12,227 bases of DNA from a virus (taxonomy: Duplodnaviria > Heunggongvirae > Uroviricota > Caudoviricetes): IMG/VR virus record IMGVR_UViG_2695420809_000014, positions 1 to 12,227 of that record; one strand, 5' to 3'. Made by a program: the position numbers and the translations under genes. Positions within the stretch are counted from its first letter, which is position 1; every line of letters begins with the position of its first letter. Below are positions 1 to 12,227 of this stretch, one piece after another. Below the pieces are notes generated by a model. It was not told where the DNA came from. It did no database searches and saw only the letters and a list, made by a program, of their open reading frames with translations.

Positions 1-558
1 TATCGCGTCCTCAACAATGAATTTTGTGATGCGGCGCCTGGTGCCTCCAGGTGACGTTAACCAGTAAACCATTAACGCCGGATTGTTAGTTGATGTCTGT
101 TACGCAAGTAAAAGACCGCTTGTTTTAACTGTTCCGCGTGCGCTGAGCCGCATTCACCGCATCACAAAATTCACTTTAAAAGGGGCGGGTATCACGGGAA
201 AAACAAAACGAATACCCGCCAAAAGGTAATCAACATGGGTTGTTGTAGCGGAGTTGTCACTCAGGCGTATGGTCAACCTGACAACCCGGTGTCCTCAACG
301 GGGAAGGAATAACCCCGCCATACTTACCGCCGCGCCATTTCGCGGAGTGCCACAACCGGAAGCGCACGGTCGACGAAAATTTAACGACAGGCTATCTATG
401 AACCAGCAACCTCGCCGTGCGCTTTCGCGTTATGCTCTGACTTTTCAGAGAAATATCCTTTCAGTAAACTGTCAGTGCCGGATGTTCACCCGTGTCCGGC
501 GCACGCACTCCACTTCACCCATGGAGAACTCCTTAATTACCAACCCTCAGGAGGGTGA

Positions 559-792
559 ATGTTAAAATCAACTCTTATTGCTAAATGCCTTTATCAAAAT
601 CGCATGGTAAGCAGCATTTCAATAGGCGAGTCTGCAGTTAAAAGTATTTTCGAAGAGTACTTTCCCGGGCATGATTTTAATAAATGGAATACCAAATTAC
701 CGCCAGCAGTTTCAACGCGTATTCTGAAAGCAACTGAAAGAGCAAGTACAATTCGCGTTAACTATTTCATTAAAGATTTGTGGGATCTTTGA
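559..792 (+). CDS. hypothetical protein, 77 aa
   Basis: ATG at 559 preceded by AGGAGG (549-554); third codon positions biased to A/T as expected for real coding sequence in a lower-GC segment; 3' end overlaps the convergent gene 770-1177 by 23 bp. No family recognised. Confidence 0.45.
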   Translation: MLKSTLIAKCLYQNRMVSSISIGESAVKSIFEEYFPGHDFNKWNTKLPPAVSTRILKATERASTIRVNYFIKDLWDL

Positions 793-1177
793 TATCCACA
801 GAGCCTAAAGTATGTGCATATGGATGTGCTATTGTGCGCCCTCGCAGATTTGCATCATTTTCTAAATTCACTGAACGAAACAGGGCATCAACAAGGCTCT
901 GTACAATGCAAAGGCAATCGAAGACTGTCGCCGTTTCTGTTTTGATTGATGAAAGAACATGGCCATTCACGCAAACAGAAATTACCCGTTTATTAACATC
1001 GCTTTCCTGCTTTTGATTATCAGAACCATATAGCCCAGAAAAAGCATTGCGCACATTACGAACCATATTATCGATGGTTTCTTTTTTGGTGTATGCCGGG
1101 TCAATTTTCACCAGACTATCACCGAGAGTCGTTGCAGCAATTGTCTGGATTTCTTTTGGTAAATCTTTAAATTCCAT
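770..1177 (-). CDS. hypothetical protein, 135 aa, distal gene of the leftward early operon
   Basis: ATG at 1177 with GAGG 6 nt upstream; separated by 22 bp from the stop of the upstream minus-strand gene (1200); about 41% GC versus about 50% for the surrounding phage backbone. No family recognised. Confidence 0.6.
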   Translation of the reverse strand: MEFKDLPKEIQTIAATTLGDSLVKIDPAYTKKETIDNMVRNVRNAFSGLYGSDNQKQESDVNKRVISVCVNGHVLSSIKTETATVFDCLCIVQSLVDALFRSVNLENDANLRGRTIAHPYAHTLGSVDIKDPTNL

Positions 1178-1199
1178 TATTAGCCTCGTTGGTTAGCTA

Positions 1200-1418
1200 T
1201 TAACGTGGGTATGTAATCATTCTGGCAATGCTTAATGCCGCTGCTTTTTCCAGATTGGTGATATCCTGCTCCAGAGCGGACAGATTTTCAGCCTGCTTAG
1301 CCCTGGCTTCATTGGCCCATTTCAGGTCCTGCGCAGCCTTAATTTTCTGGTGCATCCACTCATAAAGTTCATCATCGGTATAGTCTGGCGCGATGATGAC
1401 GGGTTCTCGTTTCTGCAT
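1200..1418 (-). CDS. hypothetical early-left protein, 72 aa, predicted helical/coiled-coil
   Basis: ATG at 1418 with GAGGA 6 nt upstream; packed in the same minus-strand operon as its neighbours. Confidence 0.6.
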   Translation of the reverse strand: MQKREPVIIAPDYTDDELYEWMHQKIKAAQDLKWANEARAKQAENLSALEQDITNLEKAAALSIARMITYPR

Positions 1419-1447
1419 ACTGATTCCTCGCGGTGCTGCTTCGCTTA

Positions 1448-1576
1448 TCAGCCGTTAGATTTTGCCGGGCTGGAAAGCGCCTGTTTAAATTCGCTGAAGC
1501 TGAGGGCTTCTTCGCCTTCGGCAAGGCCTTCGAAGTATTCTTCGTAAGCCTTTTCCATGATTGTGTCGAAATCCAT
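1448..1576 (-). CDS. small acidic protein, 42 aa (net charge about -7)
   Basis: ATG at 1576 preceded by AGGTGG with a 5-nt spacer; start lies 1 nt after the TGA of the upstream gene (translational coupling); not in the supplied ORF track because it is under 60 aa. Confidence 0.45.
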   Translation of the reverse strand: MDFDTIMEKAYEEYFEGLAEGEEALSFSEFKQALSSPAKSNG

Positions 1577-1577
1577 A

Positions 1578-1733
1578 TCACCCACCTGAATCTCTTTCCA
1601 GCCAGCGACGCGCTCCAGATTCGGTTTTAAACGTTTTGCTTTTGGTATACGTCATTGCGGTGAACGTGCCGTCCTGGTTTGGAAACACGCCGTACACCAG
1701 AGATTCGTTGTTGCCAAGATCGATAGTATCCAT
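1578..1733 (-). CDS. hypothetical early-left protein, 51 aa (alternative start at 1814 gives 78 aa)
   Basis: In-frame ATG at 1733 with GAGG 5 nt upstream; first gene downstream of the palindromic operator pair at 1919-1957; size and position resemble the small ydaF/ydaG-type genes of Rac-like prophages (recollection, not verified). Confidence 0.5.
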   Translation of the reverse strand: MDTIDLGNNESLVYGVFPNQDGTFTAMTYTKSKTFKTESGARRWLERDSGG

Positions 1734-1918
1734 GCTGACCTCATTCCCCCTTAACGCCGGGGTAGCGGAACAAAAACCTGCTGCATAGTTATTAAAGTTG
1801 AACCCTGCCGTCATGTTCTTACGCCTCGGGCTGGCTACTTAACCCCTGACCACTGCCGGGTAACTCGAAGTATTTCCCTGCGTTCTGTGGGGCGGGGTGG
1901 GTTGGTATGAAAAGAAGG

Positions 1919-1957
1919 ATACCCATGGGTATTTAAAAAGTAAATACCCATGGGTAA
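1919..1957. promoter_or_regulatory. OL-like operator pair: two 14-bp palindromes ATACCCATGGGTAT (1919-1932) and ATACCCATGGGTAA (1944-1957)
   Basis: Perfect and near-perfect palindromes 25 bp centre to centre, just downstream of the repressor gene stop and upstream of the leftward small-gene operon; same WTACC-N4-GGTAW pattern as the three sites in the repressor/cro-like intergenic region. Confidence 0.5.
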
Positions 1958-1998
1958 CTTTTTGCGGTGTCTTAACTGGTGACTAGTTGTTTGGTGAG

Positions 1999-2418
1999 CT
2001 ATGATGCGTTTTGTGCTTTCTTTTTACGGATTTCTTCGTAGATCATATTGTAATACTGTTTTTTCTCTTCAAGAGTTTTTAATAAGTTATCCGCTTCACT
2101 TTCTGGCAGTTCGTCTAAGAGATCTAAAAAAATACGTTGTCGTGGCGTTAGAACCCTTGTTTCATAACTGGAGGCTGTGTTCGTTGATGATGAAACGATA
2201 CCATCCATCCATCCCCGGGGTAACCCAAAGGACTCTTCGATAATCTCCACCATATCATCAGCGATCCGTTTTTTTCCCTTTTTCCCCTCTGGGTACAACA
2301 TTCTTGATACATAAGAAGGCTCGCGCCCGATCTTTCTGGCCACGTTAACCGCTTTACCATCGCATTTCTCATCACGAATTTTGATGAGTTGCTGTCGTCT
2401 AAATTCATATTTGTCCAT
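1999..2418 (-). CDS. phage repressor, short HTH type (RacR-like, 139 aa)
   Basis: N-terminal HTH-like segment (KAVNVARKIGREPSYVSRML); divergent from a Cro-like gene; no SD before the ATG and a TATTAT -10 hexamer 6 nt upstream, consistent with a leaderless maintenance transcript as for lambda cI. Confidence 0.8.
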   Translation of the reverse strand: MDKYEFRRQQLIKIRDEKCDGKAVNVARKIGREPSYVSRMLYPEGKKGKKRIADDMVEIIEESFGLPRGWMDGIVSSSTNTASSYETRVLTPRQRIFLDLLDELPESEADNLLKTLEEKKQYYNMIYEEIRKKKAQNAS

Positions 2419-2437
2419 AGGTAAATAATAGATGCGA

Positions 2438-2493
2438 TTACCGCAAGGTAAACAACCTGTGGGTATTGACTTTTGTTTACCTGTGGGTATTCT
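2438..2493. promoter_or_regulatory. OR-like region: three WTACC-N4-GGTAW sites (2438-2451, 2453-2466, 2477-2490) overlapping divergent promoters
   Basis: TTACCGCAAGGTAA, CAACCTGTGGGTAT and TTACCTGTGGGTAT; rightward promoter candidate TTGACT (2466-2471), 16-bp spacer, TATTCT (2488-2493); leftward -10 TATTAT (complement of 2425-2430). Confidence 0.55.
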
Positions 2494-2518
2494 TTGCTGT
2501 GTTTACTAAGGAGTAGCT

Positions 2519-2800
2519 ATGGAAGAATTAAGAATATTTCTCAATTCTCTTTCGTCAGATGAACAGCGTATGTTTGCATGCGAGTGTGGTACCAGCATCG
2601 GTTATCTAAGAAAGGCATTGAGTAAAGGTCAAGTGTTAGGGGCATCGTTATGTGTCCTTATTGAGCGAGCCAGTAATGGTGAAGTTACACGTCAGCAACT
2701 AAGGCCTTTTGATTGGATGAATATTTGGCCCGAGCTGGAAGATACCAAAACGTTAACACAACCACTTTCTAGGAGCTTGATTCATGAAAATCAAGCATGA
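2519..2800 (+). CDS. Cro-like HTH regulator, YdaS family-like (93 aa)
   Basis: ATG 2519 with AAGGAG and 5-nt spacer; C-terminal IERASNGEVTRQQLRPFDW resembles the YdaS/Cro-type motif; divergent from the repressor. Confidence 0.75.
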   Translation: MEELRIFLNSLSSDEQRMFACECGTSIGYLRKALSKGQVLGASLCVLIERASNGEVTRQQLRPFDWMNIWPELEDTKTLTQPLSRSLIHENQA

Positions 2801-3209
2801 ACACATCCGCATGGCGATGAATGCCTGGGCTCATTCGGACGGTGAAAAAGTTCCGGCAGCTGAAATAACCCAGTCTTATTTTGAGTTGGGTATGACGTTT
2901 CCTGAATTGTACGACGACAGCCATCCGGAAGCCCTGTCTCGTAATACCCAGAAAATTTTCCGCTGGGTAGAAAAAAACACCCCTGATGCGGTTAAAAAAA
3001 TTCAGGCGTTGTTACCGGCGATCGAAAAAGCAATGCCGCCTCCGCTGGTGGCCCGAATGCGCAGCCACAGTTCGGAATATCACCGGGAGCTTGTCGAGCG
3101 ACGGGAGCGCCTGGTGAAAGATATCGATGAGTTTGTTGCGGCAGCGATCGTGTTGTTCGATCAGATGAATCGTGGTGGTCCGGCGGGAAATGCCGTGGTG
3201 GCGCATTGA
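2784..3209 (+). CDS. YdaT-like protein (141 aa), CII-type regulator/toxin family
   Basis: Begins MKIKHEHI, which I recall as the YdaT family N-terminus; AGGAG upstream; overlaps the preceding gene by 17 bp. Confidence 0.7.
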   Translation: MKIKHEHIRMAMNAWAHSDGEKVPAAEITQSYFELGMTFPELYDDSHPEALSRNTQKIFRWVEKNTPDAVKKIQALLPAIEKAMPPPLVARMRSHSSEYHRELVERRERLVKDIDEFVAAAIVLFDQMNRGGPAGNAVVAH

Positions 3210-3229
3210 TAACGTGTTCTGGGGGGGGG

Positions 3230-4195
3230 ATGAAGCTCCTTTTTGCTGAACGTCCGCTGGTTATAAACACGCAGCTGGCGATGAAAATTGGTCTGAACGA
3301 AGCCATCGTGTTGCAGCAGTTGCATTACTGGTTGAGAGATACCGGTTCCGGCATGGAATGTGATGGTGTTCGCTGGATTTATAACACAACAGAACAATGG
3401 CTGGAGCAGTTCCCGTTCTGGTCAGAGTCAACGTTAAAACGCGCATTTGCAAGTCTGAAAACGCTGGGGCTTTTACGTTGCGAAAAGCTCAATAAATCAA
3501 AGCGTGATATGACTAATTTTTACACGATTAATTACGAGAGCGAGCTTTTAGATGGTGGCAAAGTGAGCGAATCCATCAGATCAAAATGCGCTGCTCCATC
3601 AGGTCAAAATGACACGATGGAAGAGGCCAAAATGGCACGTTCCATTGGTTCAAAACGACTCAATGTCATCGGGTCAAAATGGCCTGATGATCTTACAGAG
3701 AATACAACAGAGATTACTACAGAGAATAAAAACACTTCTCGTCCGGAAGCTTCGCAACCGGACCCGCAGACGGTTGAACAGGATTTTTTAACCCGACACC
3801 CTGACGCGGTTGTGTTCAGTGCAAAAAAACGCCAGTGGGGCAACCAGGAGGATTTGGCGTGTGCGCAGTGGATCTGGGGGCGAATCGTGAGTCTTTACGA
3901 GCAGGCCGCCAGCGATGATGGCGAGATTTCGCGACCGAAAGAACCCAACTGGACCGCATGGGCCAACGACGTGCGCACAATGCGGATGCTGGATGGCAGA
4001 ACTCACAGACAAATTTGTGAAATGTTTGGTCGGGTGCAGCGGGATCCATTCTGGGTAAAAAATATCATGAGTCCGTCAAAGCTTCGCGAAAAATGGGATG
4101 AACTGGTTATCCGCCTGGGGCGTTCGTCTGTACAGCGTTGTGTGAATCATATTTCTGAGCCGGATACCGAAATTCCGCCGGGGTTCAGGGGGTAA
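3230..4195 (+). CDS. replication initiation protein, O-like replisome organiser (YdaU position)
   Basis: ATG 3230 directly abuts a G9 tract (3221-3229); N-terminal winged-helix-like region; five about 23-bp-spaced iterons inside the coding sequence; followed by a DnaC-like gene. An in-frame TTG at 3206 is a less likely alternative start. Confidence 0.8.
   Translation: MKLLFAERPLVINTQLAMKIGLNEAIVLQQLHYWLRDTGSGMECDGVRWIYNTTEQWLEQFPFWSESTLKRAFASLKTLGLLRCEKLNKSKRDMTNFYTINYESELLDGGKVSESIRSKCAAPSGQNDTMEEAKMARSIGSKRLNVIGSKWPDDLTENTTEITTENKNTSRPEASQPDPQTVEQDFLTRHPDAVVFSAKKRQWGNQEDLACAQWIWGRIVSLYEQAASDDGEISRPKEPNWTAWANDVRTMRMLDGRTHRQICEMFGRVQRDPFWVKNIMSPSKLREKWDELVIRLGRSSVQRCVNHISEPDTEIPPGFRG
3574..3730. 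repeat. origin-like iteron array (5 copies, core TCAAAATG, about 23-bp period) plus AT-rich tract with three tandem 12-mers beginning ACAGAGA
   Basis: Iteron cores near 3581, 3604, 3628, 3651, 3674; AT-rich 12-mers at 3695-3730; located inside the O-like gene as in ori-lambda. Confidence 0.6.
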
Positions 4196-4201
4196 CGGGC
4201 C

Positions 4202-4948
4202 ATGAAAAATATCGCGACAGGTGGTGTTCTTGAGCGTATCCGTAAGCTGACCCCGCAGCATGTAATCGCGCCGTACCGGACAGTGGACGAGTGGCGCGAG
4301 TGGCAACTGGCAGAAGGGCGAAAACGTAGCGAGGAGATCAACCGCCAGAATCGCCAGTTGCGGGTGGAAAAAATCCTGAATCGTTCGGGCATCCAGCCTC
4401 TGCACAGCAAATGCTCGTTTGCGAATTATCAGGTGCAGAACGACGGGCAAAAACACGCGCTGAGCCAGGCAAAATCCATCGCTGACGAACTGATGACCGG
4501 GTGCACGAATTTTGTGTTCAGCGGTAAGCCGGGTACCGGAAAGAACCACCTTGCAGCCGCCATTGGCAATCATCTTCTGGCGAAAGGTCGCAGCGTGATT
4601 GTGATAACGGTGGCTGATGTGATGCTGGCGTTACACAACAGCTACGACAACAAAAACTCAGGCGAAAAATTTTTACAGGGGTTGTGTGATGTTGACCTGC
4701 TTGTCCTGGATGAAATCGGAATGCAGCGGGATACGCGCAACGAGCAGGTCACACTGAACCAGATAGTCGACCGCAGAACGGCTTCGATGCGTAGTGTCGG
4801 AATGCTGACGAACCTGAACCACGTAGCGATGAGTACGCTTCTTGGCGAGCGTGTGATGGACCGCATGGTCATGAACGGTGGTCGCTGGGTGAATTTTAAC
4901 TGGGAGAGCTGGCGTTCGAATGTCAGACACCTGAGGGTTGTGAAGTAA
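4202..4948 (+). CDS. DnaC-like helicase loader (IstB-type AAA+ ATPase; YdaV position)
   Basis: Walker A GKPGTGKNHLAAA and Walker B DLLVLDEIG; start 7 nt after the stop of the O-like gene. Confidence 0.9.
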   Translation: MKNIATGGVLERIRKLTPQHVIAPYRTVDEWREWQLAEGRKRSEEINRQNRQLRVEKILNRSGIQPLHSKCSFANYQVQNDGQKHALSQAKSIADELMTGCTNFVFSGKPGTGKNHLAAAIGNHLLAKGRSVIVITVADVMLALHNSYDNKNSGEKFLQGLCDVDLLVLDEIGMQRDTRNEQVTLNQIVDRRTASMRSVGMLTNLNHVAMSTLLGERVMDRMVMNGGRWVNFNWESWRSNVRHLRVVK

Positions 4949-4969
4949 TTTTGTCCGGAGGAAATTTTA

Positions 4970-5731
4970 ATGGAAACCGTTTTTGACGCACTGAAAGCAA
5001 TGGGAAAAGCCACATCGGTAGAACTGGCCGCGCGACTTGATATCAGTCGTGAAGAGGTTCTCAACGAGCTGTGGGAACTCAAAAGAAATGGCGTCGTTGA
5101 TAAAACTGGTCACACCTGGTTTCTGGCTGGCGAAAGTGAATCCCTGGTAACCGAAGAGCGGCCAGTAAAATCTGAAGCACAGGATATGCTGACCGGGGAG
5201 GTCGAACAAAAAGTTACCGCAGACATGATGATTGAGTTTATCGGTCAGGATGGGGCTAAAACGTGTGAGGAACTGGCGGGTAAGTTCGGCATCAGTACTC
5301 GCAAGGTTGCTTCCACGCTGGCGGTGGTAACCGCAACGGGGCGGCTGGCACGCGTTAATCAGAGCGGTAAATTTCGTTACTGCATGCCGGGCGGTAATTT
5401 ACCAGCAGAGCCGAAAGCAGCATCGGTAACGGAAAATGATGGTAAGACCTTTCCTCAGCCAGCAGGTGTTGCGTTACCAGTCCGGGAAGCCGCAACACAG
5501 GAAGAAATTAAAACAGAAACTGTAGCGGGCATTGTGCAGTCGCTGCCATCGTTTACTGAAACGCGAGCGGATGACCTGATTTTACCATCGCTGCATATGG
5601 CAAACCTCGAACTGCGTCGGGCGAAAAGTCATGTCCAGAAGTGGGAACGAGTCTGCGCCGCGCTGCGGGAGCTGAACAAGCACCGGGATATTCTTCGGGA
5701 TATTACCGCGACCGGAGAGCTGCAGCGGTGA
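4970..5731 (+). CDS. hypothetical protein with two winged-helix-like repeats (253 aa; YdaW position)
   Basis: GGAGG with 8-nt spacer before ATG 4970; repeated motif ([15 protein letters not shown]... and [15 protein letters not shown]...) suggests tandem wH domains; C-terminal helical segment. Confidence 0.7.
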
Positions 5732-6045
5732 GTGGCTGGAAGAAGTGGTACGAGGCTGAAATCATGATACTCCGTCAGTGTGCGGGAACGATGACGGTCG
5801 AAAGCATTGGGAGGCTGACCGGTCGTACAGGTGATGCTGTCAGAACGAAAGCGCGGGAACTGGGTGTCAGTCTGATGTTACGGGGTGATTATCACCAGTC
5901 AACAAAATATCCACAGAGTGATATTGAACTGGCGCGACAGCTGCATCAGCGTGGCGTACCCAGGAGAGAAATCGCCAGAAAATTTGGAATGCCGTTGCGC
6001 ACAGTGAATAACTACGTTTATTTCGACAGGAGAGTTCAGGAGTGA
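5728..6045 (+). CDS. HTH DNA-binding protein (about 105 aa)
   Basis: GTG 5728 overlaps the upstream stop as GTGA; HTH-like segment [22 protein letters not shown]; alternative start ATG 5764 with GAGG upstream. Confidence 0.6.
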
Positions 6046-6392
6046 GGGTGAGAGTTTATATTGCCGGTCCAATGACCGGGTATAAAAATTTCAACCGTGA
6101 GGCGTTCCACAAGGCGGAAGAGGAACTGAAACGGGAAGGGCATACAGTCTTGAACCCGGCAGTACTTCCGGACGGGCTGACACAGCCGCACTACATGGAT
6201 ATCTGCATGGCAATGATACGTAGCGTGGATGCGATTTATATGCTGAAAGACTGGCAACGGTCAGCAGGCGCTAAAGCGGAACTGGCTCTGGCGGAGAAGC
6301 TAGGGCATGTGGTTGTTTTTCAGAGGGGGGCGATATGCCGATTCTCTGGTTTCAGGAGGTGTGGGAAAAAGAAATGTGGGAAGGTCTTGTGA
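6042..6392 (+). CDS. DUF4406-like (nucleoside 2-deoxyribosyltransferase-like) protein
   Basis: N-terminal VYIAGPMTG motif typical of that fold; GTG 6042 overlaps the upstream stop as GTGA; alternative GTG at 6048. Confidence 0.65.
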   Translation: MRVRVYIAGPMTGYKNFNREAFHKAEEELKREGHTVLNPAVLPDGLTQPHYMDICMAMIRSVDAIYMLKDWQRSAGAKAELALAEKLGHVVVFQRGAICRFSGFRRCGKKKCGKVL

Positions 6393-6460
6393 TTGTGGCC
6401 GAAACAGTTCTTTTATTATGGTCTGTGATTGCGTGTATTTTTATGATTTATTGTGAATGA
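6335..6460 (+). CDS. small hydrophobic peptide, 41 aa (or 28 aa from ATG 6374)
   Basis: ATG 6335 follows GAGGGGGG; translation MPILWFQEVWEKEMWEGLVIVAETVLLLWSVIACIFMIYCE; overlaps the 3' end of the DUF4406-like gene in another frame; not in the ORF track. Confidence 0.3.
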   Translation: MPILWFQEVWEKEMWEGLVIVAETVLLLWSVIACIFMIYCE

Positions 6461-6485
6461 TGTGAATCTCGCGGTGGCCACTGAA

Positions 6486-6530
6486 TTGCAACCATTACCC
6501 CCTGTGATGTAATTGTGGGGTAATGGTTGC
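6486..6530 (+). promoter_or_regulatory. 14-bp perfect inverted repeat (6488-6501 / 6517-6530) with an embedded promoter-like TTGCAA-16 bp-TGTAAT
   Basis: GCAACCATTACCCC ... GGGGTAATGGTTGC; -35 candidate 6486-6491 in the left arm, -10 candidate 6508-6513 in the loop; lies upstream of the gene starting at 6564. Confidence 0.35.
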
Positions 6531-6563
6531 GCAGGCATAGCGACAGGACTGGATGAGAAAAAT

Positions 6564-6986
6564 ATGACGAAATTTACCAGAGAGCAATTGATTGCTCATG
6601 CTAATGAAAGTGTGAAATCCATGAAATTTGCTGCGCGACAGACCGTGTTTAAGACTTCAAGAGTTGCCATTGAAATGGATCTTGCGCTTGCCCGTATTGC
6701 GCTTGCCTCACTTGAAGCAATGCCAGTTGCATGGTCCTGTGCTCACAATATGGTTTTGTTCAATGCTGAATCTGTTGCGGCATACGCAAAACACTCAGCC
6801 ATTGCGCCAAAACCCCTGTACGCTGCGCAACCGGCATCACTTTCACATGAGGAAGAGTTGGCAATGCTGGTTAAACAATTGGTAAGTCAGTTGAAAAAAG
6901 CGAAACCAGATTGCAAATTACCGGATATGGCGATGGGGTATCTGGAGCGGAATGGGCTGATAAGCGCGGAGGATGTTTTACGATGA
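6564..6986 (+). CDS. hypothetical protein, 140 aa
   Basis: First ATG of the frame (the track's 6513 start is a TTG inside the inverted repeat); weak SD; Ala/Leu-rich helical composition. Confidence 0.65.
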   Translation: MTKFTREQLIAHANESVKSMKFAARQTVFKTSRVAIEMDLALARIALASLEAMPVAWSCAHNMVLFNAESVAAYAKHSAIAPKPLYAAQPASLSHEEELAMLVKQLVSQLKKAKPDCKLPDMAMGYLERNGLISAEDVLR

Positions 6987-7066
6987 CCTGGCCGGAGGCA
7001 TTCACAACGACAGGAATTGCAATGGCGGCAGCACTTGTTGTGTATTCGATTTGCAGCTGGGGATAA
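6983..7066 (+). CDS. small hydrophobic peptide, 27 aa
   Basis: ATG overlaps the upstream TGA as ATGA; MTWPEAFTTTGIAMAAALVVYSICSWG has one predicted transmembrane segment; not in the ORF track. Confidence 0.35.
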   Translation: MTWPEAFTTTGIAMAAALVVYSICSWG

Positions 7067-7277
7067 AAACGGTTTGCGGGGAAATCTTAGTTAAGTAGAA
7101 TGACTGCGGGTGCTTGAGGCTATCTGTCTCAGGCATGAACACCAAAAGGCAGATAGAGAAAAGCCCCAGTTAACATTACGCGTCCTGCACGACGCTTAAC
7201 ATTAATCTGAGGCCCAATCTATGTCTCACAAATGTAGGTTAGCCTCTTACGTGCCGAAAGGCAAGGAGAAGCAGGCT

Positions 7278-7433
7278 ATGAAGCAGCAAAAGGCGATGTT
7301 AATCGCCCTGATCGTCATCTGTTTAACCGTCATAGTGACGGCACTGGTAACGAGGAAAGACCTCTGCGAGGTACGAATCCGAACCGGCCAGACGGAGGTC
7401 GCTGTCTTCACAGCTTACGAACCTGAGGAGTAA
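7278..7433 (+). CDS. hokD: Hok/Gef-family type I toxin (51 aa)
   Basis: Translation MKQQKAMLIALIVICLTVIVTALVTRKDLCEVRIRTGQTEVAVFTAYEPEE matches my recollection of E. coli HokD/RelF; AAGGAG upstream; an in-frame ATG at 7221 would give a 70-aa extended form. Paralogue assignment is uncertain because no relBE is upstream. Confidence 0.85.
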   Translation: MKQQKAMLIALIVICLTVIVTALVTRKDLCEVRIRTGQTEVAVFTAYEPEE

Positions 7434-7503
7434 GAGACCCGGCGGGGGAGAAATCCCTCGCCACCGCTGATGTGTCAGGCATCCTCAACGCACCCGCACT
7501 TAA

Positions 7504-7529
7504 CCCGCTTCGGCGGGTTTTGTTTTTTC
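7504..7529 (+). terminator. intrinsic terminator at the hok transcript 3' end
   Basis: CCCGC-TTCG-GCGGG stem-loop followed by TTTTGTTTTTT. Confidence 0.7.
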
Positions 7530-7600
7530 TGGTCGTTCTGGTTTACAATTCGCACGCCAGCCTGAACAACTGGCACCTGCTGCGCCAGCAGAGACAACCG

Positions 7601-7879
7601 ATGGCGCACGATACCAAATTACACAATTCTGATGATTCTGCCGTCTTTGCCAGCAGGCACGGGCGGCGTTCCCGCACTTTCAAATCTGACTGGTTCCAGC
7701 ATCCCCCATGCACTGAAGAACAGGCCGAGTGGCTAATTCAGTGCTACCGCAGACACGGATACGAGATTAAGAAAGCCCTCAGCCTCGATTATCGTCACTG
7801 GATAATCTCCGTCAGGCTTCCTTACTCCGAGCGCCCACCGCGTCCGTCCCGCACATTCCAGCAACGCATCTGGAGGTAA
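7601..7879 (+). CDS. hypothetical protein, 92 aa
   Basis: First ATG downstream of the hok terminator in an ORF that ends 1 nt before the DUF968 gene start; weak SD. Confidence 0.5.
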   Translation: MAHDTKLHNSDDSAVFASRHGRRSRTFKSDWFQHPPCTEEQAEWLIQCYRRHGYEIKKALSLDYRHWIISVRLPYSERPPRPSRTFQQRIWR

Positions 7880-7880
7880 C

Positions 7881-8930
7881 GTGCGGGTATTACTTCGACC
7901 TGTTCTGGTACCGGAACTCGGGCTGGTGATCGTTAAGCCGGGCCGTGAATCCATGCCGGTATTCCACAATACCCGGGTACTGGTGGAGCCGGAACCGAAA
8001 AGCATGCGTAATCTGCCGTCCGGGGTTGTTCCTGCCGTTCACCAGCCGCTAGTGGAAGACAAAACATTGCTGCCGTTTTTCAGTAACGCACGGGTGATTC
8101 GTGCTGCTGGTGGTGCTGGTGCATTGTCTGACTGGCTGTTGCGCCATATTAAATCCTGCCAGTGGCCACACGGCGATTATCATCACAGCGAAACCGTCAT
8201 TCACCGTTATGGTACCGGCGCAATGGTGTTGTGCTGGCACTGCGACAACCAGCTGCGTGACCAGACATCCGAATCACTCGAGCAACTTGCTCATCAAAAC
8301 CTGTCAGCATGGATGATTGACGTCATCGGTCACGCAATAAGCGGTACGCAGGAGCGTGAATTATCTCTGGCTGAATTATCCTGGTGGGCGGTCTGCAATC
8401 AGGTGGCGGACGCGCTTCCGGAGGCAGTATTACGTCGTTCTCTGGGGTTACGTGCGGAAAAAATCCGCCCCTTGTACCGCGAAAGCGACATCGTACCGGG
8501 AGAGCAGACCGCCATCAGCATACTGAAACAGCGCACAAAAAATCTTGCGCCGCTGCCTCACGCCCACCAGCAACAGAACCCACCACAGGAAAAGACGGTG
8601 GTCAGCATTGCCGTTGATCCTGAGCCTCCGGAATCTTTCATGAAACGACCTAAACGTCGCCGCTGGGTTAACGAGAAATACACACGCTGGGTGAAGACAC
8701 AGCCGTGTGCGTGTTGTGGTAAGCCAGCCGACGATCCCCATCACCTGATTGGTCATGGTCAGGGCGGAATGGGGACAAAATCTCACGATATTTTCACGCT
8801 ACCGCTGTGTCGGGAGCATCACAACGAGCTTCATGCGGATCCGCTGGCGTTCGAAGAAAAGCATGGTTCTCAGGTTGATTTAATTTTTCGTTTTCTTGAT
8901 CACGCCTTTGCAACTGGCGTGCTTGGGTAA
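7881..8930 (+). CDS. DUF968-like protein (YdfU-like, 349 aa), C-terminal Cys/His HNH-like motif
   Basis: GTG 7881 with GGAGG upstream; C-terminal CACCG...HHLIGHG...CREHHNELH cluster. Confidence 0.75.
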   Translation: MRVLLRPVLVPELGLVIVKPGRESMPVFHNTRVLVEPEPKSMRNLPSGVVPAVHQPLVEDKTLLPFFSNARVIRAAGGAGALSDWLLRHIKSCQWPHGDYHHSETVIHRYGTGAMVLCWHCDNQLRDQTSESLEQLAHQNLSAWMIDVIGHAISGTQERELSLAELSWWAVCNQVADALPEAVLRRSLGLRAEKIRPLYRESDIVPGEQTAISILKQRTKNLAPLPHAHQQQNPPQEKTVVSIAVDPEPPESFMKRPKRRRWVNEKYTRWVKTQPCACCGKPADDPHHLIGHGQGGMGTKSHDIFTLPLCREHHNELHADPLAFEEKHGSQVDLIFRFLDHAFATGVLG

Positions 8931-8942
8931 AAGAGGTGACTG

Positions 8943-9299
8943 ATGCTCATAGATTTGGTTTTACCTTACCCGCCGACGGTGAACACTTACTGGCGACGCC
9001 GTGGCAGCACATATTTTATCTCGGAGGAGGGAAAGCGTTATCGCCGGGCTGTGGCGTTTATTGTTCGCCAGCAGCGGCTGAAATTAAGCCTGTCCGGAAG
9101 GCTGGCGATAAAGGTGATTGCAGAGCCACCGGATAAGCGTCGTCGCGACCTGGACAACATTCTGAAAGCACCGCTGGATGCGCTGACGCATGCGGGAGTG
9201 TTAATGGACGATGAGCAGTTTGATGAAATCAATATCGTTCGTGGTCAGCCAGTATCTGGTGGACGTCTGGGGGTGAAGATTTACCCCATAATGCATTAA
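8943..9299 (+). CDS. rusA: RusA-family Holliday junction resolvase
   Basis: Conserved PDKRRRDLDN, DALTHAG and GGRL segments; size 118 aa; GAGGTG before ATG 8943. Confidence 0.85.
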   Translation: MLIDLVLPYPPTVNTYWRRRGSTYFISEEGKRYRRAVAFIVRQQRLKLSLSGRLAIKVIAEPPDKRRRDLDNILKAPLDALTHAGVLMDDEQFDEINIVRGQPVSGGRLGVKIYPIMH

Positions 9300-9313
9300 G
9301 AGCAGGTCAAAAA

Positions 9314-10135
9314 ATGAAACTGGAAGATTTACCGAAATACTACTCCCCAAAATCCCCTGGCCTGACCGATGCATCGGCCTCAACGTCAAAAGATGCGCTG
9401 AGTATCACTGATGTGATGGCCGCGCAGGGCATGACACAGAATCGGGCTGAGATGGGTTTTTCTGCGTTCCTGGGGAAAATGGGCATCAGTATGAATGACA
9501 GGGCGCGGGCAACAGAATTACTGGCAGATTATGCACTCAGTCGGTGCGATCGTGTGGCGGCGTTGAGAAAACTTCCGGCAGAAATAAAACCGGTAGTGAT
9601 GCGCATTATGGCTTCGTACGCTTTTGAGGATTATGCCCGCAGCGCAGCGAGTAAAAAGCAGTGCCCTTGTTGCTATGGGGAAAAATTTATTGAAAGCATA
9701 GTTTTTACAAACAAGGTCCAGTATCCGGATGGTAAGCCGCCGGTATGGGCAAAGTGTACGAAAGGTGTGTATCCGTCTTACTGGGAAGAATGGAAAAAAG
9801 TCAGGGAGGTGGTAAAAGTTGCCTGTCCGGAGTGTGGCGGAAAGGGTGAGGTTTCCACCGCCTGTAAGGATTGCCGTGGGCGTGGTGTCGCCATTCATCG
9901 TGAAGAGTCGGTAAAACGTGGTATGCCTGTTATCAGAGACTGCCAGCGTTGTGGTGGTCGTGGCTATGAAAGACTACCATCAACGGAGGCATTTAATGCT
10001 ATATGCGAGGTGACAAACCAGATAACACGCGCGTCATGGGAAAAAACAGTTAAGAAATTTTATGATGCGCTGGTGACCCGGTTTGATATTGAAGAAGCAT
10101 GGGCTGAGCGGCAGTTAAAAAAGGTAACTAGGTAA
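9314..10135 (+). CDS. late-gene antiterminator Q-like protein with four CxxCxGxG zinc-finger repeats
   Basis: Sits immediately upstream of a pR'-like promoter and tR'-like terminator; CPCCYGEKF, CPECGGKGE, CKDCRGRGV, CQRCGGRGY motifs; resembles Qin-type Q homologues from memory. Confidence 0.6.
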   Translation: MKLEDLPKYYSPKSPGLTDASASTSKDALSITDVMAAQGMTQNRAEMGFSAFLGKMGISMNDRARATELLADYALSRCDRVAALRKLPAEIKPVVMRIMASYAFEDYARSAASKKQCPCCYGEKFIESIVFTNKVQYPDGKPPVWAKCTKGVYPSYWEEWKKVREVVKVACPECGGKGEVSTACKDCRGRGVAIHREESVKRGMPVIRDCQRCGGRGYERLPSTEAFNAICEVTNQITRASWEKTVKKFYDALVTRFDIEEAWAERQLKKVTR

Positions 10136-10140
10136 CAAGG

Positions 10141-10168
10141 TTGATTTTTCCGGAATCTGTGGTAAATT
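10141..10168 (+). promoter_or_regulatory. pR'-like late promoter
   Basis: TTGATT (10141-10146), 16-bp spacer, TG-extended TAAATT (10163-10168), 5 nt after the Q-like stop. Confidence 0.5.
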
Positions 10169-10215
10169 CGTCATAACGATGGGCGTTTTATGCCTGACGT
10201 TAGAAGAGTTTCTAC

Positions 10216-10241
10216 AACCCGCCGCTGAGCGGGTTTTTTAT
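10216..10241 (+). terminator. tR'-like intrinsic terminator
   Basis: AACCCGC-CGCTGA-GCGGGTT stem-loop followed by TTTTTT, about 50 nt downstream of the promoter. Confidence 0.65.
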
Positions 10242-10278
10242 TGCGAAATTAATTACGGACCGTTATTATTCTGCTCCC

Positions 10279-10354
10279 GGCCCTTTAGCTCAGTGGTGAG
10301 AGCGAGCGACTCATAATCGCCAGGTCGCTGGTTCAAATCCAGCAAGGGCCACCA
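10279..10354 (+). tRNA. tRNA with CAT anticodon, closest to the lysidine-type tRNA-Ile2 (ileZ/ileX-like); tRNA-Met not excluded
   Basis: 7-bp acceptor stem GGCCCTT/AAGGGCC, D-arm GCTCAGTGGTGAGAGC, anticodon loop CTCATAA, T-arm GGTTCAAATCC, encoded CCA. Confidence 0.8.
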
Positions 10355-10455
10355 TCACAAACCGCCATTAGCTTATCAGGAAGAGCAGACGACACGATAA
10401 CAGGGTTGTTGGTGCGGGGGGCGGGTCCCCGATGGCGGTCCATTATCGGTATTCA

Positions 10456-10532
10456 GCGTTGTTAGCTCAGCCGGACAGAGCAATTGCCTTCTAAGCAATC
10501 GGTCACTGGTTCGAATCCAGTACAGCGCGCCA
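10456..10532 (+). tRNA. tRNA-Arg (TCT anticodon, argU/argN-like)
   Basis: Acceptor stem GCGTTGT/ACAGCGC, anticodon loop CTTCTAA, T-arm GGTTCGAATCC, encoded CCA; close to E. coli argU by eye. Confidence 0.85.
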
Positions 10533-10642
10533 TATTCATTCTTCCAGATTCCTTCCGGCAGAGCCTTATACTGAAATATACCTGGCTCAGGATATTGTTG
10601 AAAATATTATATGTTTGTCAAAAATAAAAGTTCTGTTAAGTA

Positions 10643-10996
10643 TTGATTGAATATTTGTTATACGGTCTAATGGTTTTTTCAGCATTAAATATTTATCATT
10701 CATATGGTGTGGGTAGAGTGAATATTGATGAGGCGTCGGGGTGTTTCATCCTTAGGCAGCGTATTGATATAGTCAATGCAGCACGAGCAAAGGCCTTCAG
10801 CCGTTTGACAGTTTTGTTCTGTACTCCTGATCGTCTTTCGGGAAGAGACGTTATTATTCTGAATAGTGATGCTATACAGAGGGTTTGCGATGAGTTCATG
10901 GTTGCTAATTCAGAATTATTTGCTCTTGTTCAGGAGTACAACAGAATAGCCAGGACCTGTGGTATGGATGAACTTCGGATTACTCATCTGGGGTAG
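10643..10996 (+). CDS. hypothetical protein in the AT-rich cargo segment (117 aa from TTG 10643; 108 aa from ATG 10670), hydrophobic N-terminus
   Basis: Longest ORF in the cargo; frequent ATA, AGA and AGG codons; no convincing SD at either start, so the call is tentative. Confidence 0.4.
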   Translation: MIEYLLYGLMVFSALNIYHSYGVGRVNIDEASGCFILRQRIDIVNAARAKAFSRLTVLFCTPDRLSGRDVIILNSDAIQRVCDEFMVANSELFALVQEYNRIARTCGMDELRITHLG

Positions 10997-11076
10997 ATAC
11001 ATATCTGGATTATCACCTGTTACGGTAAAAAGTGATTGCTTACTGTTTTTGTGAATGGCATTGCAGCAGCCGGATA

Positions 11077-11163
11077 ATGTCAGTGCTGGCTGACGGTGTG
11101 CTGGTGGCGGGTGTGGTGGTTGTTGCTTTCCCGTTGCTGAAAAAGAAAACGCCAGACTGTTAG
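11077..11163 (+). CDS. possible small hydrophobic peptide, 28 aa
   Basis: MSVLADGVLVAGVVVVAFPLLKKKTPDC: hydrophobic core then a KKK tail; weak SD (GGAT); not in the ORF track. Confidence 0.2.
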   Translation: MSVLADGVLVAGVVVVAFPLLKKKTPDC

Positions 11164-11389
11164 CCGGGTATCAGTTAGCGGGAGAAATTTTTAAATACTT
11201 CACAATTCAGGCGGTTGACTGTTGTCTGGTTTGCGGGGAGTTTGTTAAAAGAAACTGGCATGGTGAATCCCCCTGTGCGGAGGGGCAATCAGCGAGTAGG
11301 TATATGGGATAATCGCGGATTCAGGTGCTGGTACTGAATTCACCGGGAGGCACCCGGCACCATGCAATGGCACATAGCGCCACTCTCCA

Positions 11390-11416
11390 GCCCCTCTCCG
11401 GAGGGGCTGTTTATAT
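11390..11416 (+). terminator. candidate intrinsic terminator
   Basis: GCCCCTC-TCCG-GAGGGGC stem-loop followed by a T-rich tract (TGTTTATATTGATTTT). Confidence 0.4.
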
Positions 11417-11443
11417 TGATTTTGTCAGATGTGAGTAAACTCC

Positions 11444-11779
11444 TTATGGATTTTGTTGTTTTAGCCCATAAGGACATATTTGCAGAGTGCAACGGTTATT
11501 AAAGCATTCATTCAATACGTTATCTGTATTTGTAGGGCATTCCTGGCTGTTTTTGATTAAATTCCAGAATGTTTTATTGAATGGTACTATGTTGTAAATG
11601 GTTACAGGTAGCACTTTGTTATTGAGCATGATACCTGTGTGAGTCAGTGTAAATATACTTTCAGGAGGTAAGAAAGCATCCGATTGATACCAGATTATTA
11701 ATTTTATTTTACTCCATATGACTGAAAAAGATATTCCGCATGATGGCTGGATAACTGTATCAATCACAATCCACTTCAT
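11444..11779 (-). CDS. hypothetical protein, 111 aa, in the AT-rich cargo
   Basis: ATG 11779 with AAGGAAA 5 nt upstream; transcribed opposite to the late operon; Trp-rich N-terminal half and Cys-containing C-terminal half; no family recognised. Confidence 0.6.
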
Positions 11780-12038
11780 TTACTTTCCTTGTTTATGCCT
11801 TGCTGGTGATGTTCTGAAAAGTATAAATGATATTTTTGAATTAAACCATAGAGCAGAATTATTTTTCTGATGTTGTTTATTGTTTATTTAAATACAGGGT
11901 GGTTTATATCTCGTCTTGTAGTTTATCCATGCATATCTGCTTGATAATCAGGTTTTTATTTAAGGTATGGTTTTGTGTTTTTTCTGTATTACATGTCAGG
12001 TATTTTAAAGAATTATTTTTCAGATGGTGGAAAGAACC

Positions 12039-12227
12039 ATGGCATTTAAACACTATGATGTTGTCAGGGCGGCGTCGCCATCAGATCTTGCGGAAAAGCT
12101 GACACATAAACTGAAAGAGGGCTGGCAGCCGTTTGGTAGTCCGGTGGCCATAACCCCTTATACTCTGATGCAGGCGATTACAGCAGAAGGTGATGTGGTG
12201 GTCAGTGGTGCAACTGAGCCGGATTGG
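12039..12227 (+). CDS. 5' part of a conserved small phage protein (DUF1737-like by recollection), continues past the window end
   Basis: ATG 12039 preceded by GGTGGA; open frame MAFKHYDVVRAASPSDLAEKLTHKLKEGWQPFGSPVAI... to 12227 with no stop; GC content returns to backbone level. Confidence 0.5.
   Translation, partial: MAFKHYDVVRAASPSDLAEKLTHKLKEGWQPFGSPVAITPYTLMQAITAEGDVVVSGATEPDW

Follow-up and report, generated by a model that had tools for sequence, protein, structure and literature searches.

Among the closest described counterparts of the gene pair analyzed in this work is the sieB/esc/sas system of P22, lambda and Rac. According to the literature, the product of sieB, made by the prophage, aborts other phages, and its owner escapes through Esc and the antisense RNA sas, which derives from the early-left promoter (PL). 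The rightward gene is embedded in the early-left operon in antisense orientation and points at the first PL gene(s): in lambda sieB (plus strand) abuts N (minus strand) head to head, and in Rac it overlaps by 4 bp ydaF (minus strand), a homolog of YdfA. The pair described here was found in a stretch of 12,227 nt from a virus of the class Caudoviricetes (IMG/VR record IMGVR_UViG_2695420809_000014, positions 1 to 12,227; the window), in which gene A of the plus strand, encoding 77 amino acids, converges on and overlaps a minus-strand gene for a protein of 135 amino acids whose C-terminal part is designated the B domain. As sieB of lambda and Rac likewise faces the first PL genes, A may be said to lie in the sieB slot.

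Other systems also bear on the comparison. BstA, a large protein, is transcribed together with the repressor, and a DNA site within its gene, aba, serves as the immunity element. Among the convergent toxin-antitoxin (TA) loci of type I, txpA/RatA and bsrG/SR4 are examples. The bstA locus of Salmonella phage BTP1 has been mentioned in PMC7067206. The operon that harbors the pair is of the dicBF type, known from the Qin prophage of Escherichia coli K-12, in which a long untranslated spacer separates ydfC from dicF, the small RNA (sRNA) DicF is excised by RNase E (its processing involves RNase E/III) and ends at an intrinsic terminator, and toxicity with tight repression is described for both DicF and DicB (PMC5069750).

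A and B constitute a widespread, uncharacterized two-gene module of new protein families, the architecture of which resembles both sieB/esc/sas and convergent TA loci. An earlier inspection of the letters alone (the sequence-only reading) had noticed a 77-codon open reading frame (ORF) with a strong AGGAGG motif, its 23-bp overlap with a converging 135-codon gene, and the lack of an evident function for either; all three observations have been upheld (Table 1). Both genes are annotated by PGAP as coding sequences in an identical genome, and both products match PHROG families of unknown function over their full length (A, phrog_10348, E=1e-47; the 135-amino acid protein, phrog_1363, E=4e-47). 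Homologs of A, 55-72% identical and of a constant 77-78 amino acids, occur in at least 10 genera, including Klebsiella, Serratia, Dickeya, Xenorhabdus, Photorhabdus, Proteus, Morganella, Yersinia and Salmonella. When A was compared between genera the synonymous rate (dS) was saturated and the ratio of nonsynonymous to synonymous rates (dN/dS) was about 0.13-0.34, i.e. purifying selection, and an exhaustive search with a hidden Markov model (HMM) collected 157 clusters at 50% identity, nearly all of them stand-alone proteins of 74-80 amino acids. The constant length of the homologs, the dN/dS values and the number of clusters establish the plus-strand ORF as a real gene and not a chance frame, and its conservation, which the sequence-only reading had left to be checked, is thereby settled.

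A is predicted to be soluble, basic (pI 9.5) and all-helical; its AlphaFold2 (AF2) model, built from 22 sequences, is a five-helix bundle with a predicted local distance difference test (pLDDT) score of 97.3. Neither A nor the 135-amino acid protein gave anything meaningful in Pfam, NCBIfam, PADLOC or the PDB sequences, a Pfam scan of 71 diverse members of the A family returned no match, and no homolog of known function was found for the 135-amino acid protein, the other point on which the sequence-only reading could have fallen. The structure predictions it had proposed were carried out for both proteins, and neither model has a credible relative in PDB or BFVD; Foldseek matches of A in BFVD were confined to its own family. 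Scans of viral contigs for loci of distant A relatives were also negative. One public source names the exact 77-amino acid protein a "dGTP triphosphohydrolase"; this was rejected, as family searches gave it no support and 77 residues are implausibly few for such an enzyme, and the name is probably an annotation error.

The 135-amino acid protein is a fusion that the sequence-only reading had missed, as it had missed the conservation of the pair beyond E. coli and the loss of the A promoter described below. Its AF2 model (pLDDT 76.7) shows a helical hairpin, a disordered linker (residues 53-62) and a domain of a beta-hairpin plus helices. The hairpin corresponds to an N-terminal module (N-module) common to proteins with unrelated C-termini. 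The second part is the B domain, which has 125 members, keeps the motif VNG..T..AVAADY...LE.EAN.sGKTI.H in the alignment, belongs to phrog_23433 or to the C-terminal half of phrog_1363, and stands alone in other genera as proteins of 77-87 amino acids. It has also been found joined to a YdfC-like N-terminal domain and to a ClpX-type zinc finger, in proteins of L093/L095 (193-203 amino acids; L numbers designate the loci fetched for comparison), of L087 (156 amino acids) and in P0137, which carries Pfam PF06689. The YdfC-like fusion hints, at the level of sequence, that the uncharacterized YdfC works with B.

The two genes travel together. HMM scans of all 112 fetched loci detected A in 102 loci and B in 105; a solitary A was met once, at a contig end, and B without A was confined to a 201-amino acid variant described below. 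In Photorhabdus (L017) and at two E. coli loci (L094, L096) A is disrupted to a pseudogene and B is intact. Wherever the locus was examined (Klebsiella, Serratia, Proteus, Photorhabdus, Xenorhabdus, Yersinia-like, Citrobacter, Erwinia, Enterobacter and Leclercia) the genes converge and overlap, and all 36 unique pairs are convergent and 3'-overlapping. The overlap generally measures 23 bp, as in the window, with variants of 26 bp (A of 78 amino acids), 51 bp (Citrobacter) and 119 bp; the last is that of a metagenomic phage in which A, at only about 30% identity, nevertheless still converges on B. The pair of the window conforms to the common plan of a phrog_10348-type protein of 74-80 amino acids that converges on, and overlaps at its 3' end, a gene with a B domain. 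Judged from these comparisons, A and B are one module, a cassette travelling in lambdoid prophages of Enterobacterales, and their convergent overlap is a conserved feature of design and no accident.

The window comprises the immunity/early region of a lambdoid E. coli prophage. It matches strain JNE25-003 at 100% identity, and in that strain the prophage has inserted beside yccA. Its leftward operon has the Qin/dicBF order (repressor gene at 1999-2418, operators, ydfA, ydfB, ydfC, 135-amino acid gene), and the elements of a dicBF-type operon are all found on one strand: ydfA (DUF1391), ydfB, ydfC, an sRNA with an intrinsic terminator, and dicB, with a repressor-controlled promoter. In the alignment with K-12 Qin the backbone, about 95% identical, is interrupted by a clean insertion of 634 bp, which contains the two ORFs and nothing else, extending from one start codon to the Shine-Dalgarno (SD) sequence of the other ORF. 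The GC content is 39.0% for the cassette, 35.9% for A and 40.0% for the 135-amino acid gene, against 49-51% in the flanks, so the low GC content noted earlier is real but the values of 41-43% given for it were off. The sequence-only reading had rightly placed the pair in an early-left operon; it erred in letting the operon end there. Past the 135-amino acid gene about 590 nt are devoid of minus-strand ORFs, and dicB then begins directly left of window position 1, followed by a ydfD-like gene, an exonuclease gene, xis and int (annotation of the identical genome). Since these continue on the same strand, the 135-amino acid gene is located mid-operon, and the pair lies between ydfC and the DicF-type sRNA/terminator, upstream of dicB and not at the distal end. 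Among 5426 complete E. coli genomes 646 (about 12%) carry the cassette, including those of enterohaemorrhagic E. coli (EHEC) of serotypes O157:H7, O26, O111 and O145.

The signals around the pair are best seen outside E. coli. In a Klebsiella locus (L012) CI operators (ACAGnTAAAACTGT) and a PL promoter matching 10 of 12 positions adjoin B directly upstream, and the cI terminator precedes them, which makes B the first early-left gene there. Upstream of A, loci outside E. coli carry an element of about 65 nt whose invariant bases form an extended -10 sequence, TG-n-TA-nnn-T, and in most genera this promoter is free of repressor operators. The element (TGTGCCTGTCTTTTCACCAC-n-TCAGGC-n-GGTGGTATCTTGG...CCAAGAAG) precedes not only A but also an unrelated gene, A' (see below). 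It contains an invariant CCAC/GTGG repeat in the promoter spacer with a conserved TCAGGC center, the only helix recovered by RNAalifold, and a second inverted repeat that overlaps the -10 sequence, folds in 16 of 18 sequences and shows compensatory variants. Neither a terminator nor a stable RNA structure was detected in the overlap region (z-scores -0.1 and -0.4), so that the two genes are not separated by a terminator. The antisense interference suggested by the sequence-only reading is supported in its premises, the conserved convergent overlap and the lack of a terminator or structure between the genes; interference itself would be a reasonable expectation.

On the leftward strand of the window the pair is followed by a hairpin at the position of DicF, which ends the short early-left transcript; this is in keeping with the operon structure published for dicBF (PMC5069750). 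The flanks and the hairpin/terminator architecture are kept but the sRNA body is unlike K-12 DicF, and the Rfam DicF model (RF00039) found no match in window 1-1300 even at E <= 10; the A/B region gave no Rfam match either. From its sequence this RNA may be a variant of the DicF-locus sRNA with a different seed and targets. In other genera the element is directly followed on the leftward strand by DicF-type terminator hairpins (TTGGCGG...CCGCCCTTTTT); such candidates were seen in Klebsiella, Enterobacter, Erwinia, Yersinia-like and Edwardsiella phages and their 5' regions are unlike E. coli DicF. Rfam searches of eight other loci did not call DicF, and the hairpins were recognized by direct inspection alone. 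Several copies of an STnc100-like element sharing the hairpin CACCGGGAGGCACCCGGCACC were also encountered: one at window 23-171 (minus strand), between the DicF-position hairpin and dicB (29.9 bits, below the gathering score of 47), one in the equivalent early-left position of Shigella phage SfII (L105 2197-2412, minus strand, 39.5 bits), and a full copy at window 11229-11418 (plus strand), downstream of the tRNA genes and the Q region (132 bits).

The A/B slot also holds other pairs, and at least three further unrelated convergent pairs have been found in it. An E. coli variant encoding a 201-amino acid protein is identical to the window through residue 128 of the B protein and then again from the SD of A outward. 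Between these points A is replaced by an unrelated 63-amino acid ORF, A' (phrog_2605), that re-uses the SD of A, and the B protein runs into an unrelated tail of 70 amino acids, B' (phrog_15476); the exchange breaks exactly at the stop codon of A. A' and B' occur as an independent pair directly behind cI in two isolated phages, EPP-1, where they overlap by 33 bp, and SfII, in which an unannotated ORF of 68 amino acids is homologous to the tail of the 201-amino acid protein and to EPP-1 CFHODIGL_00034. In both phages A' is preceded by the promoter element of A, yet the facing protein is B' and not B. Partners are matched by protein and not by the shared promoter, which favors matched protein pairs and disfavors B as the DNA-binding regulator of the element. 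Two more N-module proteins face other small convergent ORFs: phrog_2151 is paired with phrog_4274, which abuts it, and a 179-amino acid protein with phrog_10133, with an overlap of 20 bp. These small ORFs, of 69 and 80 amino acids, share an MPNKP N-terminus and a C-terminal ...GR(R/S)GP... motif, and in the latter a CxxC...CPEH motif suggests a zinc ribbon. Hypervariability of cassettes is typical of conflict loci. Some prophages with the 201-amino acid variant additionally carry a PaaA2/ParE TA pair between the repressor gene and ydfA (L005 and L007, 2694-3172).

When set beside the known systems, the module shares with sieB/esc/sas the rightward gene antisense in the early-left operon, but it differs from it in its proteins. 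Blastp of A and B against lambda and Rac SieB gave only E >= 1.9, no SieB homology was found for either through Pfam or NCBIfam, and both are also unlike N in sequence and physico-chemistry. SieB is a hydrophobic protein of 160-190 amino acids, whereas A is soluble and helical in the AF2 model, with a maximum 19-residue Kyte-Doolittle mean of 0.59 against 1.73-2.19 in SieB, and so lacks the hydrophobic segments of a membrane protein. Esc is made in frame from within sieB, whereas the candidate antidote here is a separate conserved domain encoded on the opposite strand. The likeness is thus, as an analogy, one of design and not of family membership. With the dicBF operon of Qin the window shares the backbone, promoter region, ydfABC, long spacer and dicF position, but K-12 Qin is empty at the cassette site and its sRNA body differs. 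Convergent type I TA loci are likewise two-gene prophage modules with convergent transcription, a 3' overlap and possible mutual silencing; they combine a non-coding antisense RNA with a small hydrophobic toxin, in place of which two conserved soluble proteins of about 75 amino acids are found here, and TA or defence models matched neither of these. Nor were the marks of type II TA systems found: a co-directional operon, known superfamilies and a DNA-binding antitoxin. BstA/aba would resemble the module in being a lysogen-expressed accessory gene beside the immunity region whose owner carries an escape determinant, but has no homology to A or B and another gene arrangement.

The explanation that we tentatively prefer, at somewhat less than an even chance, is that A and B are a matched pair of antagonists with mutually exclusive expression, A being an exclusion or abortive factor and B a self-immunity protein. 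B would be an early-lytic gene under direct repressor control, the first after PL and the left operators (OL) in most genera; in the window it is fused to the N-module and would be expressed as the fourth gene of the ydfABC operon under a DicA-type repressor. A would be transcribed in the opposite direction, in most genera from its own operator-free extended -10 promoter. As that promoter has no repressor operators, A should be made in the lysogen. As no terminator separates the genes, the early-left transcript should cover the whole of A together with its promoter in antisense before it stops at the terminator of the DicF-type sRNA, and the A transcript should likewise run in antisense through all of B and into PL/OL, which lie beside B. 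The immediate-early leftward RNA would thus comprise the B mRNA and a tail antisense to A ending in the DicF-type sRNA. Such reciprocal antisense transcripts would make expression mutually exclusive, with A produced in lysogeny and B on induction or infection. Since partner identity tracks the proteins (A with B, A' with B'), the products most likely antagonize each other, and A as a lysogen-expressed exclusion factor with B as the phage's own immediate-early antidote would parallel SieB with Esc and sas.

Several observations weigh against this explanation. In E. coli the -10 sequence of the element is deleted and no TGnTAnnnT occurs upstream of A, leaving one weak sigma-70-like candidate; with the canonical promoter lost, expression of A in the window is uncertain and may be weak or silent. 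The most conserved bases of the element include its spacer (CCAC-n-TCAGGC), and a simple promoter explains neither repeat. Net-charge complementarity, used as a proxy of A-B binding, was uncorrelated across the 36 pairs (r = -0.02). Two E. coli alleles of B, 84% identical, accompany a near-identical A, which gives no evident sign of tight co-evolution, and there is too little polymorphism within E. coli to reveal selection on A. The PADLOC-DB v2 defence models matched neither protein at E <= 1, no known fold was found for either in PDB or BFVD, and a literature search by protein accession returned no papers on them. The asymmetry of occurrence, in which B is found with A missing or broken and A never without B save at the contig end, fits the reverse polarity equally well.

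Under that reverse polarity, which we consider unlikely, B would be a toxic early host-takeover protein in the manner of Kil or DicB, and A with its antisense RNA the safety catch of the lysogen, in a hybrid of type I and type II TA logic. All the architectural evidence applies to it equally: the A transcript covers the entire B gene in antisense, an antidote that never occurs without B would be useless lacking its poison, the operon neighbors DicF and DicB are toxic products kept under tight repression (PMC5069750), and B has conserved polar residues (D, Y, E, N, H, T) of a kind fit for a catalytic or a binding site. But A is dispensable beside an intact B, being a pseudogene in L017, L094 and L096 and without its promoter in all E. 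coli copies, and has been swapped for A' next to a nearly complete B domain. B kept where A is dispensable should not be strongly harmful by itself, and the searches made revealed no similarity of either protein to any toxin family. It is about as unlikely, in our judgment, that the locus is a purely regulatory device in which the rightward promoter and convergent transcription serve as an insulator or switch metering early-left transcription into the DicF-type sRNA, dicB, recombination and excision, with the proteins as regulators of the lysis-lysogeny decision. The promoter/leader element keeps its nucleotide sequence whichever gene it drives, A or A', holds a pair of conserved inverted repeats, of which the second shows compensatory variants, and lies immediately 5' of the DicF-type sRNAs on the leftward transcript, and DicF is processed by RNase E/III (PMC5069750); B is moreover fused to modules of an oligomerization type (ClpX-type zinc finger, YdfC-like coiled coil, helical hairpin). 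Pure interference, on the other hand, needs no proteins under purifying selection and does not predict matched, exchangeable protein pairs, and E. coli copies retain both ORFs though the -10 sequence is lost. A has no helix-turn-helix or other DNA-binding fold on comparison of its AF2 model, and B cannot recognize an element that is intact in B-less SfII and EPP-1; for the same reason B as a repressor of the A promoter has been ruled out as the main model.

The remaining explanations grant the pair less. That A and B are unrelated neighboring morons, functionally unlinked, with the overlap as a scar of modular recombination, would agree with the silent charge test and with the breakpoint of the 201-amino acid exchange, which makes the last 7 codons of the 135-amino acid protein depend on the cassette inserted; it is nevertheless highly improbable, for co-occurrence, orientation and overlap persist in 36 unique pairs from many genera, down to about 30% identity of A, and chance adjacency would not outlast such divergence and mosaicism. 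Scarcely credible is the notion that the plus-strand ORF is no gene but an antisense artefact in the early-left 3' untranslated region: the missing recognizable promoter in E. coli is what it would predict, but not a length and frame kept in at least 10 genera, dN/dS of 0.13-0.34 at saturated dS, 157 clusters, a strong SD, or a pLDDT of 97 obtained from only 22 sequences.

Table 1 Coordinates of the features of the A/B locus and its relatives (window positions unless a locus is given; strand not applicable,.)
Feature	Position	Strand	Remarks
Gene A	559-792	+	77 amino acids, ATG start; phrog_10348; WP_000920491.1; PGAP coding sequence in identical genome
SD of A, AGGAGG	549-554	+	4 nt ahead of ATG; at left cassette junction (K-12 Qin alignment)
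135-amino acid gene	770-1177	-	ATG start; phrog_1363; WP_000394520.1; PGAP coding sequence in identical genome; fusion of N-module and B
N-module	1004-1177	-	residues 1-58, helical hairpin, MEFKDLPKEIQ...NAFSGLY
B domain	773-994	-	residues ~62-135, beta-hairpin plus helices (alignment, family members, stand-alone forms)
3' overlap of A and 135-amino acid gene	770-792	.	23 bp, dual-coding; final 7 codons and stop of each
A/B cassette	548-1181	.	634 bp, 39.0% GC; missing from K-12 Qin; in ydfC-dicF untranslated spacer (alignment)
Candidate sigma-70-like promoter, sole one upstream of A in E. coli	442-470	+	TTTTCA-17-TAAACT; weak; in K-12-shared backbone
Conserved element of ~65 nt	L012 4930-5000; L105 2427-2500; L106 2430-2500; 15 other loci
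Left operators, 2 x TACCCATGGGTA, and probable early-left promoter	1920-1956	.	would drive ydfABC and 135-amino acid gene
Related operator-like site	2478-2489	.	between repressor gene and cro-like gene
DicF-position sRNA variant	178-235	-	hairpin GGCGGGTAT/ATACCCGCC (184-192/212-220) and T-run; aligns to K-12 dicF
DicF-type sRNA candidates, GCTGTGTGTAGTCTTGGCGG...CCGCCCTTTTT	L012 4874-4922; also L103, L101/L102, L095, L106	-	by inspection; strand given for L012
ydfC	1200-1418	-	upstream of 135-amino acid gene in operon
ydfB	1448-1576	-	upstream of 135-amino acid gene in operon
ydfA/DUF1391	1578-1733	-	upstream of 135-amino acid gene in operon
ydfABC gene block	1200-1814	-	operon genes preceding 135-amino acid gene
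B' of SfII, unannotated 68-amino acid ORF, MTARRPREEKVG...SLSKLFIE	L105 ~2690-2900	-	between SfII_36 and cI terminator
69-amino acid ORF, phrog_4274	L112 3140-3349	-	E. coli slot
80-amino acid ORF, phrog_10133	L113 3021-3263	-	E. coli slot

Elsewhere in the window a hok/sok-type type I TA locus was found at 7108-7283 and 7221-7433 (both plus strand; Rfam sok, 120 bits; hokD annotated in the identical genome). Two tRNA genes (10279-10351 and 10456-10529, plus strand) follow a Q-like gene, as is typical of the late regions of Shiga toxin (Stx)-type and lambdoid phages. The right end (11400-12150) has a very low GC content (30-38%) and contains a minus-strand ORF of 111 amino acids (11444-11779), a candidate moron.

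It is doubtful, though conceivable, that the slot behind the repressor defines an unrecognized class of exchangeable effector/immunity cassettes, comprising at least four unrelated convergent families, a promoter element portable outside E. coli and a coupling to DicF-type sRNAs, in which the rightward gene would be a lysogen-expressed effector of novel fold, directed against phages or modifying the host, and the leftward immediate-early one its matched antidote. The 201-amino acid fusions of B and B' would then represent stacked immunities among the several lambdoid prophages found together in EHEC genomes. If the locus were a regulatory switch it would bear on the gating of the toxic division inhibitors DicF and DicB, whose operon has no known inducing signal (PMC5069750). 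If exclusion coupled to self-immunity is its true role, the module would add new protein families, one of them with a confident and unmatched fold, to the defence repertoire of prophages, and would help to explain the interference among lambdoid and Stx prophages co-resident in EHEC.

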